Made by a program: the position numbers and the translations under genes. A DNA stretch of 44,119 nt from a virus. Location: UHGV virus genome UHGV-0175781, one strand, 5' to 3'. Within the stretch, counting starts at the first letter, position 1, and every line of letters begins with the position of its first letter. This document shows positions 11,278 through 40,638 of the stretch, in pieces. Below the pieces are notes generated by a model. It worked only from the letters and a program-made list of their open reading frames with translations, did no database searches and was not told the DNA's origin.

Positions 11278-11308
11278 CGTTGGTCATCAACCAACCGGAG
11301 ACAGAATA

Positions 11309-11638
11309 ATGAATATCAACGACGCAATCGAAATGTTAACGAAGACTGTTTGCAGTGAGACAAGCCGGTCATGGGCGTATACCGATGCCGTGGGTGCGGT
11401 GCTATTTGAAATCGAACGTCTGCGACTTACCGAAAAAGAATTGCGCGCCAGGCTGGAATTGCTCAACGGTACGGCGGCGAGCAAGCTGCAGAAGCACAAT
11501 GAAGAAATGGAAGAATACAAAAAACAGGTTATCCGTTTGCGCGCCGAGGGCAAATCTTGGGCGATGATTGCCGAGTTGACCGGAATTAATCAGAGCACAG
11601 TGCGCTCCTGGGTACGCAATAATAAAACTTCCAAATAA
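11309..11638 (+). CDS. HTH DNA-binding protein (candidate regulator or replication helper; ORF extends to 11249)
   Basis: C-terminal helix-turn-helix GKSWAMIAELTGINQSTVRSWV; GGAGA SD before ATG 11309. Confidence 0.6.
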   Translation: MNINDAIEMLTKTVCSETSRSWAYTDAVGAVLFEIERLRLTEKELRARLELLNGTAASKLQKHNEEMEEYKKQVIRLRAEGKSWAMIAELTGINQSTVRSWVRNNKTSK

Positions 11639-11642
11639 GGCT

Positions 11643-13913
11643 ATGACCATGAGTTTAATTAAATTCGCCGTAACAAGACCCGCTAAAAAAGGCGAAAAAG
11701 CCAGGGCGGAAAACTTCCAGATGACTACCGAAGAGTTTTTCGAATTTATCAATGATGCGAAAGAAATCTCCTCGGTGCATATCAACAAGACGGAAGATAA
11801 AGCCGAGTATGCGCGCCGCAAGCGTAAGGCCGACGGCATCGTGGCGTATACCAGTGACGGATTGCGTCGTAAGACCAGTGCGGTGGACCGCTCGATCCTG
11901 TTCTTCGATATTGACCGCACCGACACCCGCACCCTACGCCGCTGCCGTAAGGCGTTCATTGACGCGGGTCTTGAACACGTATTTCACACCACAACCGGCG
12001 ACCGTCACCCACTGAAAGGTGGAACACGTTGCGCTCGCTTCCTGGTGTTGACGGACAAGCCTGTACCGGCTGAAGACCTGGGACGCGCCCAGTATGCCCT
12101 GTTAGCCCAACTGGGTCTGTCAGATGTGGACTTCGACGATTGCACGAAAGACACAAACCGCCTGATGTACCTGCCACACCAGCAGTCTGTAATAAAGTGT
12201 CATTACGGCAAACGTGCCCGCGTCCGTCGTCTGCTTCGCCTGGCGGATAAGCTGGGGGTGGATAAAGAGGAAGTACGCCGCGAACTAACCAAGGGAGACG
12301 ACGAAGTGGCGGACGGCATTCTGGACTGGTGCTTCCAGGCAGGATTCGAACCACTGTCGTCCGGGCGTGGTTATGAGGTGCCGTGCCCGAACGAACATCT
12401 GCACAGCGGCGAAGGGTCCACCGCCATAATGGTTAAGGATGGCGAGATCCGTTTCAAGTGTATGCACACCGGAAACGAGTGTTGCTCGGAACTGAACAGA
12501 CACCAGCACCTGGCGCTACGTCTTATCGGGATCCCGGACCACCTGAACGTCGAGCCACACAATATGTCCCGTAAGCAAATCGCCGCCATCCTTCCGGGGC
12601 TGGACGACGAGGAAGTGGAGTCGTGCTATGAACATATTGTTGATGCGGTTGGCGACGGCGAAGAATACGGCGTGTGCACCGATGCGGATCTGGATAACGA
12701 GCCGGTTGCGCTGTTCAGTAAGCACGACCCGATCATCGAGGGGTTGATTAACTTTAAATCGACCTGGTACATGGCTGGCGAGTCGAATATCGGTAAGTCT
12801 TTCTATGTGCTTGGGCAGATGGGCGCGGTTGCCGCCGGTATTCCGTTTGGCGGTGCGAAGGTCGTCCAGTCTCATTGCTTCTATTTCGACGCGGAAGGTG
12901 GCGAAGCCTCCAACCAGCGCAAAGAAGCATTGCAGATTAAATACGAGCACGACCTGGACAAGCTGCACATTATCGACCTGCAATCACGCGGCTGGGATAT
13001 CACAAGCAAGTCCGGCTTGCGTGAAGTTATCAGCTTCATCAATCGCACCGCTAACGGTGAACCTGTTGGCCTGGTGGCGTTCGACTCACTCAACCAGACT
13101 GTTGCGCTGCGGTCCGCCGATGCTAAACCGTTTGACGAGAACAACGCCAGCGATATGGGTGAAGTGGTCAAAGCGCTGAAAGCCATTGCGGAAAATACAG
13201 GTGGCAGTGCGGGCGTCATCCACCACCCGGCGAAGGGTGCAAACGGCAGCAGAACCCCACGCGGGTCCGGCGCGCTGCATGGTGCTGTCGATTCAGCGTT
13301 CTTCCTGGAACAGCCGGACGACAACCAGCCCGGGCAATTGAACCTGTATCATGAGAAGTCACGTAACGGCATCAAGCAAGCGCCGCGCGGCTTCGTCCTG
13401 CTCAAGTGCAAGGTGAAGGTAGATCTCCGCAAGTCAGAAGCGTTCGAGGCGCACCAGTCCACCAGCACTGGGCCAGACTTCGGCGACGTGGTTGCCGGAT
13501 GGGACGTCAAGCCGATTGCCTCCACGCCTCGCGACGAGACTCTCTACCTCGTACCGGTTGCCCTGGCACCGTTCGCTATAGAACAGGCGAAGGCAGCAGG
13601 CAAGGCCGCGGTTAAGGAAGAGAACACCGCCGGACCGCGCAACGAAAAAGAGAAAGTGCTTTATGCGGCCCTGGAAAAACTGATGGAAGATAACCCGGAC
13701 CATACTGGATTCAGTAAATCGGCAATTGTCCGCCAGGCCGGACTCGCGAAAGGTGGCACATCGACGAAGGCAATCGACGATATGGTCGAGCGCGGCGTAC
13801 TCGGTTTTTATACAGATCCGCACACTGGGGCCATCTATGGGTCGTCGAATATCGTCATCAAAACGAATATACCCATCACGCTTTCGGCGACCGATGACGA
13901 CCTGAAAGATTAA
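11643..13913 (+). CDS. DNA primase/helicase (AEP-type primase-like N-terminus, zinc-binding region, C-terminal RecA-fold ATPase)
   Basis: 756 aa; LFFDIDR acidic motif; Cys/His cluster CPNEHLHSGEGST...CMHTGNECC; Walker A GESNIGKS; Walker B LVAFDSL. Confidence 0.75.
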   Translation: MTMSLIKFAVTRPAKKGEKARAENFQMTTEEFFEFINDAKEISSVHINKTEDKAEYARRKRKADGIVAYTSDGLRRKTSAVDRSILFFDIDRTDTRTLRRCRKAFIDAGLEHVFHTTTGDRHPLKGGTRCARFLVLTDKPVPAEDLGRAQYALLAQLGLSDVDFDDCTKDTNRLMYLPHQQSVIKCHYGKRARVRRLLRLADKLGVDKEEVRRELTKGDDEVADGILDWCFQAGFEPLSSGRGYEVPCPNEHLHSGEGSTAIMVKDGEIRFKCMHTGNECCSELNRHQHLALRLIGIPDHLNVEPHNMSRKQIAAILPGLDDEEVESCYEHIVDAVGDGEEYGVCTDADLDNEPVALFSKHDPIIEGLINFKSTWYMAGESNIGKSFYVLGQMGAVAAGIPFGGAKVVQSHCFYFDAEGGEASNQRKEALQIKYEHDLDKLHIIDLQSRGWDITSKSGLREVISFINRTANGEPVGLVAFDSLNQTVALRSADAKPFDENNASDMGEVVKALKAIAENTGGSAGVIHHPAKGANGSRTPRGSGALHGAVDSAFFLEQPDDNQPGQLNLYHEKSRNGIKQAPRGFVLLKCKVKVDLRKSEAFEAHQSTSTGPDFGDVVAGWDVKPIASTPRDETLYLVPVALAPFAIEQAKAAGKAAVKEENTAGPRNEKEKVLYAALEKLMEDNPDHTGFSKSAIVRQAGLAKGGTSTKAIDDMVERGVLGFYTDPHTGAIYGSSNIVIKTNIPITLSATDDDLKD

Positions 13914-13988
13914 TTTTTGCGCGCATTGGTTGCCGGTATGGGAATTCCCATATCGCTAAGAGATTAATTTTTGCGCGCATTGGTTGCC
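13907..13988. repeat. two 28-bp direct repeats (AGATTAATTTTTGCGCGCATTGGTTGCC) flanking a 14-bp perfect palindrome ATGGGAATTCCCAT
   Basis: seen in sequence; first repeat overlaps the primase/helicase stop codon; a third partial copy (CGCATTGGTTGCC) at about 14011. Confidence 0.7.
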
Positions 13989-14071
13989 ATTTTGAGTGTT
14001 TTTAGCTGGTCGCATTGGTTGCCGTGTGATGTAAATATAATGCATAGTTATGCAATAAAACTGCATAAACC

Positions 14072-14231
14072 AAACGGGACAAAAAGCGGGACAAACAGGA
14101 GGCGGGACAAAGCGGGACAGCACCCCTGTCCCGCCAGTGCTGCCGCGGCTTCCAGAGGAGCGGGACAGCGGGACAGCACCCCAGTCTTTCAGACTAGACG
14201 GGGGGTCTGGCACCCCCCTCGTCTGAGACTG
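14072..14231. repeat. iteron array copy 1: at least 7 GCGGGACA(R) units (one inverted pair) followed by a ~50-bp bulged hairpin
   Basis: seen in sequence; about 85% identical to 30330..30491; flanked by CTGCATAAA boxes and an AT-rich tract. Confidence 0.8.
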
Positions 14232-14390
14232 CATAAAATCCAGGATTGCAAAATACACGGCAGCATGTTGTGGATTGCGGTCGTCACTGAACTAGGCAAC
14301 CAATACGAGTTGCAGAATGGTGGGTGAGAAATGCCGTTTGCAGTCACAACTGATAGCGATCAACTTTTTCATGCGCGTGATTAATATTGG

Positions 14391-14419
14391 TTGCATTCGC
14401 GCCAGCACCCTGCTAGATT
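14391..14419 (+). promoter_or_regulatory. putative promoter (-35 TTGCAT within ATTGGTTGCAT, 17-bp spacer, -10 TAGATT)
   Basis: seen in sequence about 30 bp upstream of gene 14448. Confidence 0.4.
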
Positions 14420-14447
14420 GGTTGCACACCAACAAGAGGACTGAACA

Positions 14448-14714
14448 ATGGCACACAAAGACCTGGTAGACGAATTGATTGAACTGCTCGAGGCTGAGGA
14501 CAATGAGGACCTTCAAGAGAGCGCGGAACACGAAGACCTGGCAGACGTATTGCTTGAACTGATCGAGGCTGAGAAAAATGCGGACCTTAAAGCGCGTGCG
14601 GCGCACATACTCGGCAACTTCAAGAAAGAGCACCGTTACGAAGCTATGCGCGTCTCGGCGCAAGAAGCGCTGATTAATTTCCTGAATAGCGTAACCATCA
14701 CGAAGAAGGACTGA
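14448..14714 (+). CDS. small acidic protein with internal tandem duplication
   Basis: 88 aa; strong SD AAGAGGA; two ~23-aa repeat units (DLVDELIELLEAEDNEDL / DLADVLLELIEAEKNADL). Confidence 0.6.
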   Translation: MAHKDLVDELIELLEAEDNEDLQESAEHEDLADVLLELIEAEKNADLKARAAHILGNFKKEHRYEAMRVSAQEALINFLNSVTITKKD

Positions 14715-15020: not shown

Positions 15021-15290
15021 ATGGACCGTAGGCGAGCTAAACAGCTTTCGTGGTACATTCCCCTCCACTGCATACGAATATGGGCTGAGAATGCGATTGA
15101 GGGCGATTCTGTGTTCTGGAGCTACCGCGATGATGTGAAGCCATTAACGCAGACCCGCTACTTGCGCCAGTTCGCCAGGGAGCATGGGTTATCCATAAAA
15201 ACGTCCTTGCAACCAATTGGCATTCGTATTACATTACGCCGGAAGCCCGCCGTTGAGCGGGTAGGCAAACACTGGAGACTGAGAAAATGA
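15021..15290 (+). CDS. hypothetical protein
   Basis: 89-aa ORF with AAGGGG SD. Confidence 0.5.
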   Translation: MDRRRAKQLSWYIPLHCIRIWAENAIEGDSVFWSYRDDVKPLTQTRYLRQFAREHGLSIKTSLQPIGIRITLRRKPAVERVGKHWRLRK

Positions 15291-23158: not shown

Positions 23159-23923
23159 TTAGCGAGGAATGCCGCAAATCTCGTTGAGTGTTTTCACATC
23201 CAGCGCCACCGCCGTGGATTTTGGCTTGTCCGGGTATGGGATGAATTGCTCAACTTCAGGCCATGCTTTAATCAGCTTCTTGTCAGTATTGTGCAGGTCC
23301 AGTACACCGGTAACGGTGAGTTTGAACGCGTCATACTTCGCACGCAACTCGCGACGTGCCTTGTCGTTGCGGTCCAGGCGCTTACAGAAGTCATGGTCCG
23401 CCGGGTAGTCTGCGCGACCGCGTGGGAGATATATCGGCAGCGCTTTCCCTTCCTCGTCCACTTCGCACACTGACGCGAGCATAACTGTCTCGAACCCCGG
23501 AACGATATCGCCGAGATCAGGCGAGAGCTTATTCATATATTTCTCTTCCCAGTATCCGCGATGTACGCGGTATTGGCGACCGTCACCGCTCAAGGACAAG
23601 GTGCGAACATTTCCGCCTGCGTTGATTTCAAAGGTGGCGTCGTAAACGCTGCCGATACCCTTCGGGCGGTCGGTGTTATAACTATACGTCGCCTTGTTGG
23701 CGTATACGCTGACGCCGTACATCTGCGACTGGTCATCGCGGATTGCCTTGATATGCTCGCGTAGCGCGGCGAATGTGCGAATGCCGTCCGGCATACAGTC
23801 CAGCGTGATTGCGTACGCCAGGTCGCGAGAGTCCATCATGATTGTTTTGGCTTCGGTAGCGATTTCGTGGTCGCGCAGGATGTTAGCTAGGATCTGATTT
23901 TTAATGTCTTTCGTCAGTCTCAT
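23159..23923 (-). CDS. hypothetical protein, opposite-strand insertion in the morphogenesis block (ORF extends to 23968)
   Basis: about 254 aa; GAGGA SD before internal ATG; own predicted promoter and flanking terminators; no recognisable motif. Confidence 0.6.
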   Translation of the reverse strand: MRLTKDIKNQILANILRDHEIATEAKTIMMDSRDLAYAITLDCMPDGIRTFAALREHIKAIRDDQSQMYGVSVYANKATYSYNTDRPKGIGSVYDATFEINAGGNVRTLSLSGDGRQYRVHRGYWEEKYMNKLSPDLGDIVPGFETVMLASVCEVDEEGKALPIYLPRGRADYPADHDFCKRLDRNDKARRELRAKYDAFKLTVTGVLDLHNTDKKLIKAWPEVEQFIPYPDKPKSTAVALDVKTLNEICGIPR

Positions 23924-23989
23924 TTTTATGTCCTCATTGTTGGTGTGCAACCAATATAGCGCAACCAATTCCCGCAGTGCAAGCGAATT

Positions 23990-29861: not shown

Positions 29862-30175
29862 TTGAGGCGGCGCGACGCTTTTATGGCCCGCCGCCACCCT
29901 CCGAAGATTTAGCCGCGAGTTTATGGGGCGCGGCCCCTGAAGATGTTTGCCCACCAGTTGCGCTATGGCCCGACAACGCGAAGGTAGTCGCAGTCTTCAC
30001 AGATTGCTCCACGCAATGGCGCACCGGATTCGGTGGCGCATACGGCATCGACTACGGCGTACTGGAATGGCTGTTTAAGATGCATGGCGTCGAAAACGCG
30101 CAGCGTGCGTTTAAAGATATTAAGCTAATGGAACGCGTTGCGCTGGATGAAATGGCGCGGCAGAACCCCGCATAA
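29499..30175 (+). CDS. tail assembly chaperone GT fusion made by programmed -1 ribosomal frameshift
   Basis: slippery A AAA AAC at about 29852..29858; the -1 frame stays open for about 105 codons to TAA at 30173..30175 (hand translation ends ...LMERVALDEMARQNPA). Confidence 0.6.
29852..29858 (+). other. slippery heptanucleotide A_AAA_AAC for -1 frameshifting
   Basis: seen in sequence: XXXYYYZ heptamer in correct register with the G frame, directly before the G stop codon. Confidence 0.6.
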
Positions 30176-30177
30176 CG

Positions 30178-30491
30178 GAGCGGGACAGGCGGGACGTCCC
30201 GTTTTGTCCCGCCACCATTAAACAGCATATATACTCACTTTCATTGCATAAATTAAAAGCGGGACAGGGGTGCTGTCCCGATCTGTCCCGCCTCCAAAAT
30301 GTGAATATCTATTCAGTTTTCGTGCATAAAACAAACGGGACAAAAAGCGGGACAGAATGGGGCGGGACAAGGCGGGACAGCACCCCTGTCCCCGCCAGTG
30401 CTGCCGCGGGTTTTAGCCGATCGGGACAGGCGGGACAAAGCCCAGTCTTTCAGACTAGACGGGGGTCATTGGCCCCCCTCGTCTGAGACTG
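30178..30491. repeat. iteron array copy 2: about 14 GCGGGACA(R) units in both orientations, palindrome CGGGACGTCCCG, then a conserved bulged hairpin
   Basis: seen in sequence; 30330..30491 is about 85% identical to 14072..14231. Confidence 0.8.
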
Positions 30492-30559
30492 AATAAGGTT
30501 TGTTTTAAATTCGCTGATACAATGACCGACGGCAACTGCATAAAAAGGGGGACTGCATA

Positions 30560-40403: not shown

Positions 40404-40425
40404 AAGCCCCGGAAGGGGCTTATTT
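40404..40425. terminator. bidirectional hairpin terminator (AAGCCCC-GGAA-GGGGCTT) between convergent genes
   Basis: seen in sequence; T-rich on both sides. Confidence 0.45.
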
Positions 40426-40638
40426 GCAAGTGGTGCTTTTGAAGTGGTCTACAGAAACATACTGGAAGTTGAAAGGGTAGCCCGCCCGCAACATTTTATG
40501 CCCGCTAAAGTCGGCAACCCCAAACACCGGGACCGAGTATTCCATGCCGCTATTAACATATGTCGCGTCGCAGACTTTAGTCGGCATGTTGGCACAACCC
40601 GACAGAAGAACCGCACAAATCATAATTAAAGTTTTCAT
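40420..40638 (-). CDS. small outer-membrane lipoprotein, candidate superinfection-exclusion protein (Cor/Llp-like)
   Basis: 72 aa; signal peptide MKTLIMICAVLLSGC with lipobox LSGC; opposite strand next to receptor-binding genes; AGGGGGA SD. Confidence 0.55.
   Translation of the reverse strand: MKTLIMICAVLLSGCANMPTKVCDATYVNSGMEYSVPVFGVADFSGHKMLRAGYPFNFQYVSVDHFKSTTCK

Follow-up and report, generated by a model that had tools for sequence, protein, structure and literature searches.

What function, if any, resides in the paired 28-bp direct repeats, and in the palindrome between them, at the 3′ end of the primase/helicase gene in the virus genome UHGV-0175781? The window, by which we mean the whole stretch of 44,119 nucleotides (nt) that was analysed, represents the whole or almost the whole genome of a Dhillonvirus, an Escherichia coli siphovirus resembling HK578 and SO-1. 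Its transcription runs leftward from ~11.0 kb and rightward from 11.3 kb, and the rightward operon starts with a gene for a 109-amino-acid (aa) helix-turn-helix (HTH) protein, followed by the gene for a 754-aa primase/helicase. An initial annotation had treated the repeat pair and the intervening palindrome as a functional unit, possibly a nicking or protein-binding site. Our analysis points to a different explanation, to which we assign a rough probability of 0.55, namely that the repeats are extra copies of a short regulator-binding box standing beside an origin-like module and that the 54-bp unit formed by one repeat and the palindromic spacer is dispensable.

The anatomy of the locus is as initially described. 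Exact copies of AGATTAATTTTTGCGCGCATTGGTTGCC are found at 13907-13934 and at 13961-13988, their starts being separated by 54 bp; the first copy overlaps the stop codon of the primase/helicase gene (TAA, 13911-13913), a third, partial copy, TCGCATTGGTTGCC, follows at 14010-14023, and the perfect 14-bp palindrome ATGGGAATTCCCAT lies between the two full copies at 13938-13951. In-register similarity of the two full copies reaches 33 nt (13902-13934 against 13956-13988, 94%), and an exact repeat of 28 bp cannot be due to chance. The palindrome is a different matter in this respect, as two perfect 14-bp palindromes are found in the window against ~3.5 expected in random sequence of equal composition, and dyads of 22 bp in which no more than one pair is mismatched turn up in 35% of random genomes. 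Each repeat ends, as had also been noticed, in a motif found throughout the genome, the 9-bp box ATTGGTTGC, which is present in 15 copies in the window against 0.56 expected. It is the commonest 9-mer of the genome, and none of 100 shuffled sequences reached this number.

For comparison with relatives we used a 12-genome Dhillonvirus alignment, 25 distinct loci and, for counting the 54-bp unit, 149 matching records; a nucleotide search returned ~150 Dhillonvirus records matching the primase/helicase region of the window at 90-94% nucleotide identity. Conservation in close relatives, on which the initial annotation had staked its proposal, was found in this syntenic comparison for the box, chiefly in its third copy, which is universal, and not for the duplicated unit or the palindrome. 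Copy 1 and the palindrome form a clean 54-bp indel carried by 84 of the 149 records (~55%). Exactly these 54 bp, one repeat plus the spacer, are missing in HK578, SO-1 and UHP65, with breakpoints at the repeat boundaries; EP23 lacks both the unit and copy 2 and is left with a single box, while LM40P1 has a 32-bp version of the unit that retains half of the palindrome. When phages are compared by their primase genes, the state of the unit differs between nearest neighbours and its distribution does not track phylogeny. The unit has therefore been repeatedly lost or gained, as recombination between the 28-bp direct repeats predicts. Copy 2 retains a duplicate of the final primase codons (AGAGATTAA versus AAAGATTAA), the signature of a tandem duplication. 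The third copy behaves quite differently from the unit: its core TYGGTTGCCGTG (in the window ATTGGTTGCCGTG, 14014-14026) shows no variation across the 12 genomes of the alignment, the base preceding the core (C or T) being the sole variable position of the TCGC prefix, and its box always lies 27 bp upstream of the conserved downstream motif GAATAGTTATGCA, a position that is fixed across the 25 distinct loci. The box of copy 1 sits 116 bp upstream of the same motif.

The palindrome has a history of its own. In CS16, SECphi18 and locus L141 it is a perfect dyad of 22 bp, and its perfection in CS16 and SECphi18 implies that the element began as a real dyad rather than as noise. Among the phages that carry it, most variants are one-sided and break the dyad (Kente, SM_S22, Pubbukkers, mckay and loci L142 and L145); only CEC_Kaz_2018 changed symmetrically, with GGGGATCCCC replacing GGGAATTCCC. 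Folded as DNA, the palindrome hairpin reaches -5.8 kcal/mol (z = -2.0). Several specific roles were considered for the element and rejected. As an intrinsic terminator it would have a stem of nine pairs (five of them G-C or G-T) followed by CGCTAAGAGATT, in which there is no T-run, and a terminator scan was empty at this place; as a recurring half-site it fails because the rest of the genome contains the half-site no more often than chance would give; and a hairpin constrained by pairing is at odds with the variants in relatives, most of which alter one side only. Because the unit is absent in many relatives and scattered among them, and because its palindrome decays one-sidedly, folds weakly, lacks a T-run and has no recurring half-site, we conclude that the extra repeat and the palindrome are dispensable, and the proposal of a functional repeat-palindrome-repeat unit is not borne out.

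What the repeats have in common with the remainder of the genome is the box, and elsewhere the box is a promoter-associated site. Sixteen of the 19 sites matching TTGGTTGC are intergenic. With every box oriented on its motif strand, a -10-like hexamer follows TTGCNN by 16-18 bp at 8 of these 19 sites, compared with a background of 5% for all TTGC sites; the -10 hexamers were scored separately, relative to TTGCNN, because the threshold of a sigma-70 consensus scan also misses good box promoters. Boxes overlap predicted sigma-70-type promoters in eight places (1606/1623, 4565, 8315/8331, 11111, 14386/14417, 23947/23961, 40695 and 43800/43811), where they cover the -35, the spacer, the -10 or the start site in either orientation, and the TTGC of the box often begins the -35 (Table 1). 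The boxes are usually paired, 11-17 bp apart, the pair at 14386/14417 being 31 bp apart. At the latter promoter, the downstream gene starts at 14448, the -10 of the relatives is TATATT and the whole block is nearly invariant. The positions of the box sites are shared by HK578, by SO-1 and by the divergent LM40P1, which shows the pattern most clearly, as ATTGGTTGCA-N7-ATTGGTTGCA-c-TATATT, and ATTGGTTGC is also the top 9-mer in the divergent relatives L218 and L220. Judging from this arrangement, the box has the geometry of an operator for a DNA-binding regulator acting on host-type promoters and is not a promoter element as such.

Some further features of these transcripts were recorded. One exact box, at 15209-15217 (-), lies antisense inside the gene 15021-15290 (+); HK578, SO-1 and LM40P1 all share its location, and it is not followed by a promoter-like -10. 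A TTGGT-N5-ACCAA dyad stands just ahead of the ribosome-binding site in the leaders of three transcripts under box control (14418-14433, 23939-23954 (-) and 11279-11293), with the sequence TTGGTTGCACACCAAC twice and TTGGTCATCAACCAA once; the Salmonella phage SaI_NFG_5577 has GCCAACAGAGGAG at the same place. This dyad may serve as a symmetric variant of the operator or else fold into a hairpin in the leader. A leftward gene of the Nmad5 family (nucleotide-modification-associated domain 5), at 23159-23923 (-), stands amid rightward head genes with its own predicted box promoter at 23947/23961. HK578 and SO-1 hold different genes behind this same promoter, which therefore marks a moron-like slot.

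The boxes at the primase 3′ end (13925, 13979 and 14014) share the sequence of the operator family and not its promoter context. No usable -10 was found 16-18 bp after copies 1 and 2, copy 3 is followed only by a weak CATAGT at 18 bp, and a sigma-70/terminator consensus scan of 13700-14700 gave no promoter and a single terminator-like site inside a gene. Together with the reversed box at 14296, these boxes have a CGY prefix and C, not A, at position 10; we refer to them as origin-type boxes. Their arrangement is informative in the clade of loci L153, L218 and L220, whose primase is ~65% identical to that of the window. Here the coding end of the primase gene contains one forward box, and two reversed boxes, 16 bp apart, directly precede GAATAGTTATGCA. 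The conserved feature is therefore the presence of a box cluster beside GAATAGTTATGCA, and not the direction, spacing or length of the repeats, which favours protein-binding sites and argues against rightward promoters or a structured RNA.

A candidate for the binding protein is encoded at the head of the same operon. The 109-aa protein matches the Pfam families HTH_23, HTH_28 and Sigma70_r4_2 above their cut-offs, and its AlphaFold2 model (predicted local distance difference test score, pLDDT, 82) consists of a long helix (residues 26-79) followed by a three-helix HTH unit (84-107), for which Foldseek returned HTH units of LuxR/GerE, resolvase and IstA proteins with weak E-values. A protein search of ~5.8 billion 90%-identity clusters yielded 24 clusters of homologues; the contigs examined that encode them are Dhillonvirus-like, with the gene lying immediately ahead of that for the primase/helicase. 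Alignment of the family shows almost no variation in residues 47-106 but hypervariability in the N-terminal 45 residues, and the constancy of the HTH half parallels that of the box, which is invariant in these phages. Protein and box co-occur in all seven genomes or contigs checked, whereas SaI_NFG_5577 encodes a non-homologous regulator at that position and its genome is not enriched in the box. Boxes are also present in the divergent promoter region ahead of the 109-aa gene, whose leader carries one of the TTGGT-N5-ACCAA dyads. From these data we infer that the 109-aa HTH protein is the most likely box binder. The primase/helicase, whose C-terminus is a predicted winged helix, is the competing candidate, and if the repeats are indeed regulator boxes we consider it reasonably probable that the HTH protein, rather than the primase, binds them. 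When the primase and HTH proteins were compared with PDB sequences, nothing useful emerged; for the primase homologue search, the C-terminal fragment alone matched one partial protein, and the full-length protein was used instead.

The boxes border a region that had been described as a composite non-coding control region with an adjacent iteron array, a description that holds up well, and the region is also conserved. The interval 13914-14447 tolerates indels of 1, 54 and 112 bp among relatives, and the small open reading frames that annotators have placed in it are mutually inconsistent. The CGGGACA repeats of the array behave like iterons. Of 23 sites in the genome, 7 are in this locus (region B) and 11 in a second locus (region A), and the remaining 5 are in line with a random expectation of 5.8. 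Adjoining the iterons, the segment 14030-14059 has a G+C content of 20%, against ~54% for the genome. The stem-loop at 14182-14231 reaches -15.1 kcal/mol when folded as DNA (z = -4.3; 0 of 200 shuffles equal); its stems are invariant and its loop variable among 25 distinct copies, and the equivalent structure in Pantoea phage AH01 has another stem sequence. A conserved block, ACACGGCAGCA, lies between the stem-loop and the inverted box at 14296-14304.

This module extends beyond the genus. A scan of viral contigs for GTGAATAGTTATGC gave, among the matches listed, mostly chance hits; of the loci fetched, only six were relevant. In AH01 and SaI_NFG_5577, whose primases are 43-44% identical to that of the window, GTGAATAGTTATGC and the block CACGGCAACA are found downstream of the primase gene. 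The CACGGCA block is kept in both phages and the AGTCTTATCAGACT hairpin additionally in AH01, while the short repeats differ by lineage, being CGGACAA in AH01 and G-rich in SaI_NFG_5577. Thus, even where the primases are only 43-45% identical, conservation downstream of the gene extends to GAATAGTTATGCA, CACGGCAGCA, a hairpin and iterons that are specific to the lineage, and AH01 keeps this origin-like core without boxes in the sequenced stretch. Four components by which iteron origins are recognized are found here: an initiator with a winged helix, confined iterons, an adjacent AT-rich stretch, and a position that is conserved while the iteron sequence varies. The module at 14.0-14.3 kb thus looks like a replication origin, and we propose it as a candidate for one. 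A DnaA box or integration host factor (IHF) site in GAATAGTTATGCA was also considered and rejected, as by eye at best seven of the nine DnaA consensus positions match and the match is not conserved in AH01.

Table 1. Positions of genes, repeats, boxes and predicted elements in the window (strand left blank where none is assigned)
Feature	Position	Strand	Details
Gene for 109-aa HTH protein, candidate box binder	11309..11638	+	First gene of the operon, which also encodes the primase/helicase
Primase/helicase gene, 754 aa	11649..13913	+	RepA-like AAA_25 core, aa 357-531; C-terminal winged helix (predicted), ~aa 666-737 (nt ~13644-13859)
28-bp repeat copy 1	13907..13934	+	GATTAATTTTTGCGCGC plus box ATTGGTTGCC; part of the dispensable 54-bp indel
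22-bp dyad CGGTATGGGAATTCCCATATCG	13934..13955		One mismatched pair; core is the 14-bp palindrome; spacer within the 54-bp indel
28-bp repeat copy 2	13961..13988	+	Box 62 bp upstream of GAATAGTTATGCA; kept in all aligned main-clade relatives except EP23
Third short copy TCGCATTGGTTGCC	14010..14023	+	Box 27 bp upstream of GAATAGTTATGCA; sole copy kept in all aligned main-clade relatives
AT-rich patch, candidate DNA-unwinding element	14028..14074		By composition; contains GCATAGTTATGCA (14042-14054) and TGCATAAA
CGGGACA iteron array	14075..14175	+	Six direct and one inverted; includes hairpin GGCGGGACA...TGTCCCGCC
Long conserved stem-loop	14182..14231		CAGTCT..CAGAC..GGGGGG-loop-CCCCCC..GTCTG..AGACTG
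Inverted box, subtype CGY-ATTGGTTGC-C	14296..14304	-	Lies beyond the iteron module, on its right; kept in every aligned relative
Downstream-operon promoter, TTGCAT-17-TAGATT (predicted)	14386..14425	+	-35 (14391-14396) inside box 14386-14394; -10 (14414-14419) overlaps box 14417-14425
Region A, second CGGGACA iteron and hairpin module	30165..30500	+	No ATTGGTTGC box; between tail chaperone genes and tape-measure gene
Box promoter TTGCAT-17-TATATT	1623	-	Sequence prediction
Box promoter TTGCTG-17-TATAGT	4565	-	Sequence prediction
Promoter TTGACC-17-TAGATT	8315/8331		Two reversed boxes, in spacer and at start site; sequence prediction
Promoter TTGACT-17-TAATAT	11111		Reversed box in spacer; sequence prediction
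Box promoter TTGCAT-17-AATACT	40695	-	Upstream of 72-aa lipoprotein gene 40420-40638 (-)
Promoter TTGCAA-17-TAGGTT	43800/43811		Inverted box pair; sequence prediction

Other observations concern the surroundings of the module. Region A, when compared with 14056-14235 of region B, occupies a non-coding gap of ~400 bp in the middle of the tail operon, 16 kb from region B. In SM_S22 (locus L012, ~370-480; equivalent to 14075-14175 of the window), the iteron/hairpin part carries a 112-bp tandem duplication, and the iteron array is therefore also polymorphic in copy number. The octamer ACGGCAGC has 23 sites against ~2.4 expected, mostly inside genes, and 13 of 16 are on the + strand in the rightward-transcribed part of the genome. 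One of its sites, at 14257-14264, lies in region B within the conserved block ACACGGCAGCA, and the top 9-mer of SaI_NFG_5577 is the related ACGGCAACA, with 11 copies, also present in the equivalent region of that phage. Possible readings of the octamer are recognition by the primase, a Chi-like site and a codon effect. Further downstream, two tandem 75-nt coding repeats (14450-14599), 83% identical, make up most of an 88-aa gene at 14448-14714 with a weak HEAT-repeat match.

Taken together, these observations can be accommodated by a scheme in which a sequence-specific DNA-binding protein encoded by the phage recognizes the 9-bp box. Bound on promoter cores, this protein would most likely act as a repressor or timing switch of early and accessory genes; the phage is reported to be virulent, and the box regulator is therefore not an immunity repressor. 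The 28-bp repeats are tandem copies of the origin-proximal version of the box, CGC-ATTGGTTGC-C. Between one and three such boxes follow the primase stop at fixed distances from the AT-rich element, the iterons and the hairpin, all of which together would constitute an origin to which the primase/helicase is targeted through its C-terminal winged helix. There, the box cluster might set up a protein block or insulator that separates the unwinding element from the read-through primase operon, or it might act as an accessory in the assembly of the initiation complex. The 54-bp unit would have been born by tandem duplication and would be readily lost through recombination between the 28-bp repeats; the number of boxes is not critical in this scheme, so that a unit carrying an extra box and a palindromic spacer comes and goes. 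A bolder version, in which one small HTH protein is both the switch of about eight promoters and a factor that licenses or insulates the origin, with a bipartite origin made up of regions B and A in the manner of ori and crr of phage P4, seems to us distinctly unlikely.

Several points weigh against the reading of the repeats as regulator boxes beside an origin. GC and AT skews are uninformative on the origin, since the cumulative skew turns at 10.9 and 42.6 kb, where the direction of transcription switches. The second iteron module, region A, lies amid tail genes, which is unusual for an origin. The co-occurrence of the HTH protein and the box is confounded by phylogeny, and the covariation of protein and site resolves nothing, as box and iterons are both invariant in every clade that bears the HTH protein. 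The origin-type boxes also differ consistently from the promoter-type ones in position 10 (C versus A) and in their CGY prefix, a difference that could reflect another affinity or even another binder. Finally, no binding, transcription or replication data on any Dhillonvirus were found in the searchable literature.

Among the other explanations, the ATTGGTTGC boxes may themselves be the true origin-recognition sites of the primase/helicase winged helix, with the initiator also repressing promoters, as DnaA does, and the CGGGACA arrays serving some other purpose. The enzyme does have a winged-helix domain, in every clade boxes are grouped by the AT-rich patch at the 3′ end of its gene, and the origin-type boxes flank the iterons in inverted orientation (13925, 13979 and 14014 on +; 14296 on -). 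Yet most boxes lie on promoter cores that have neither AT-rich sequence nor iterons anywhere near them, the box-free core of AH01 lacks the sites altogether in its sequenced stretch, and the phage has a dedicated HTH protein whose DNA-binding half is invariant; moreover, it is CGGGACA that is confined to two regions and varies with primase lineage, to CGGACAA in AH01, as is typical of initiator iterons. We therefore regard an initiator acting through the boxes as unlikely. A lower probability still attaches to the idea that the repeats form a tandem of weak promoters in which TTGCCN is the -35 and which fire rightward so that the origin is activated or primed by transcription as in the T7 primary origin, lambda ori and T4 oriF/oriG. 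TTGC is the -35 in promoter-type boxes, a conserved TATAAT/TATAGT (14036-14041) and a CATAGT at 18-bp spacing follow copy 3, and the layout of repeats and then AT-rich sequence resembles that of a T7 origin. The spacing is wrong, however, for the TATAAT lies just 11 bp past the TTGCCG of copy 3 and is absent in LM40P1 and the L153 clade; copies 1 and 2 lack an acceptable -10, and in L153, L218 and L220 both boxes point into the primase gene, which is not the arrangement of a T7-type origin.

The palindrome with its flanking repeats could still be a site in its own right, whether for dimeric binding, for nicking or cruciform extrusion, or for termination of the primase operon. A perfect dyad of the length seen in CS16, SECphi18 and L141 is unlikely by chance, CEC_Kaz_2018 shows a symmetric double change, and a hairpin with a 9-bp stem forms. 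All of this has to be set against an element that is missing in ~45% of relatives, the type phages HK578 and SO-1 included, that is scattered among nearest neighbours with mostly one-sided variants, and that has neither a T-run, a terminator call nor a recurring half-site, its 14-bp core being at chance frequency; we consider such a role very improbable. It is also conceivable, if quite doubtful, that the iteron/hairpin/box region is no origin at all and instead serves as a site for packaging (pac) or of a partition-like kind, or else controls late transcription as a DNA or RNA element, duplicated as regions A and B. The presence of the module in two copies, one of which is embedded midway in the late tail operon, would suit this possibility, as would the missing skew signal at the origin candidate and a conserved hairpin that folds equally well as RNA. 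Nevertheless, no Rfam family matched in a scan of the whole window, and pac sites of headful phages are usually located in or near the small terminase gene, which is at ~18.2 kb here. The AT-rich patch beside the iterons, and a position right after an initiator-type primase/helicase gene that is kept across genera while the iterons are lineage-specific, likewise point towards an origin.

Regulator boxes next to an origin-like module would not be without parallel. Operators of phage and plasmid repressors overlap sigma-70 promoters, and DnaA boxes serve both initiation and transcription. The box is similar in being a short, asymmetric, paired site over the -35, spacer or -10 that is also clustered by an AT-rich iteron region; it differs in that its sequence and its candidate protein are specific to Dhillonvirus-like phages. 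Phage P4 uses two separate repeat-bearing cis regions, ori and crr, and the window resembles it in having two iteron regions, A and B, along with a primase/helicase with a predicted C-terminal winged helix. The P4 alpha protein is described as combining primase, helicase and a C-terminal winged helix that binds the origin repeats in one polypeptide (PMC4234260). The window protein has no detectable sequence homology to alpha, its helicase core is RepA/AAA_25-like, and P4 is not known to have a separate promoter-box regulon of this kind. In the plasmid pRN1, a small repressor gene, orf56, precedes the primase-helicase gene orf904, whose product has a winged helix, and an essential structured origin element lies just past the stop codon (PMC4234260). 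The order in the window is the same, from HTH gene to primase/helicase gene to conserved hairpin-containing region. Differences lie in that pRN1 is an archaeal plasmid with a primase-polymerase and a superfamily 3 helicase, that its origin is a 100-nt stem-loop without iterons, and that its repressor acts on its own promoter only, whereas the box of the window is found at about eight promoters and next to the origin-like core.

The locus itself is already known as a repeat region. The GenBank record of SO-1 (GQ502199) has flagged it since 2009 in its repeat_region features as 'region B', between the helicase/primase gene (gp48) and gp49, and describes direct, inverted and palindromic repeats similar to those of region A upstream of the tape-measure gene. 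SO-1 differs from the window in lacking the 54-bp palindrome unit and in having one mutated box; its annotation is descriptive only and does not include the genome-wide box or its overlap with promoters. The box regulon, the candidate regulator and the cross-genus conservation of the origin-like core appear in none of the searchable papers, and no paper describing the box, iterons or promoters of a Dhillonvirus was found in the searchable literature. During the sampling of relatives, two records with unexpected hosts were encountered. The 'Campylobacter phage A144' record (MG065648.1), with 93.5% identity across the primase region, is Dhillonvirus sequence, as is a partial protein (P0025) with 95% identity from a Photobacterium gaetbulicola assembly; both are probably contaminants or carry a mislabelled host.

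Dhillonviruses are common coliphages that figure as therapy candidates, in the BASEL collection and in studies of defence systems. The map presented here offers a 9-bp box at about eight promoters, a candidate regulator and a candidate origin. For phage engineering, the 28-bp repeats around the palindrome are the least constrained part of the region and may be usable as a site for deletion or modification, while the third short copy and the downstream core are best left intact. If a single HTH protein did act both on the promoters and at the origin, these phages would possess a DnaA-like coupling of the transcription programme to replication initiation, in a virulent siphovirus that uses only the host RNA polymerase.

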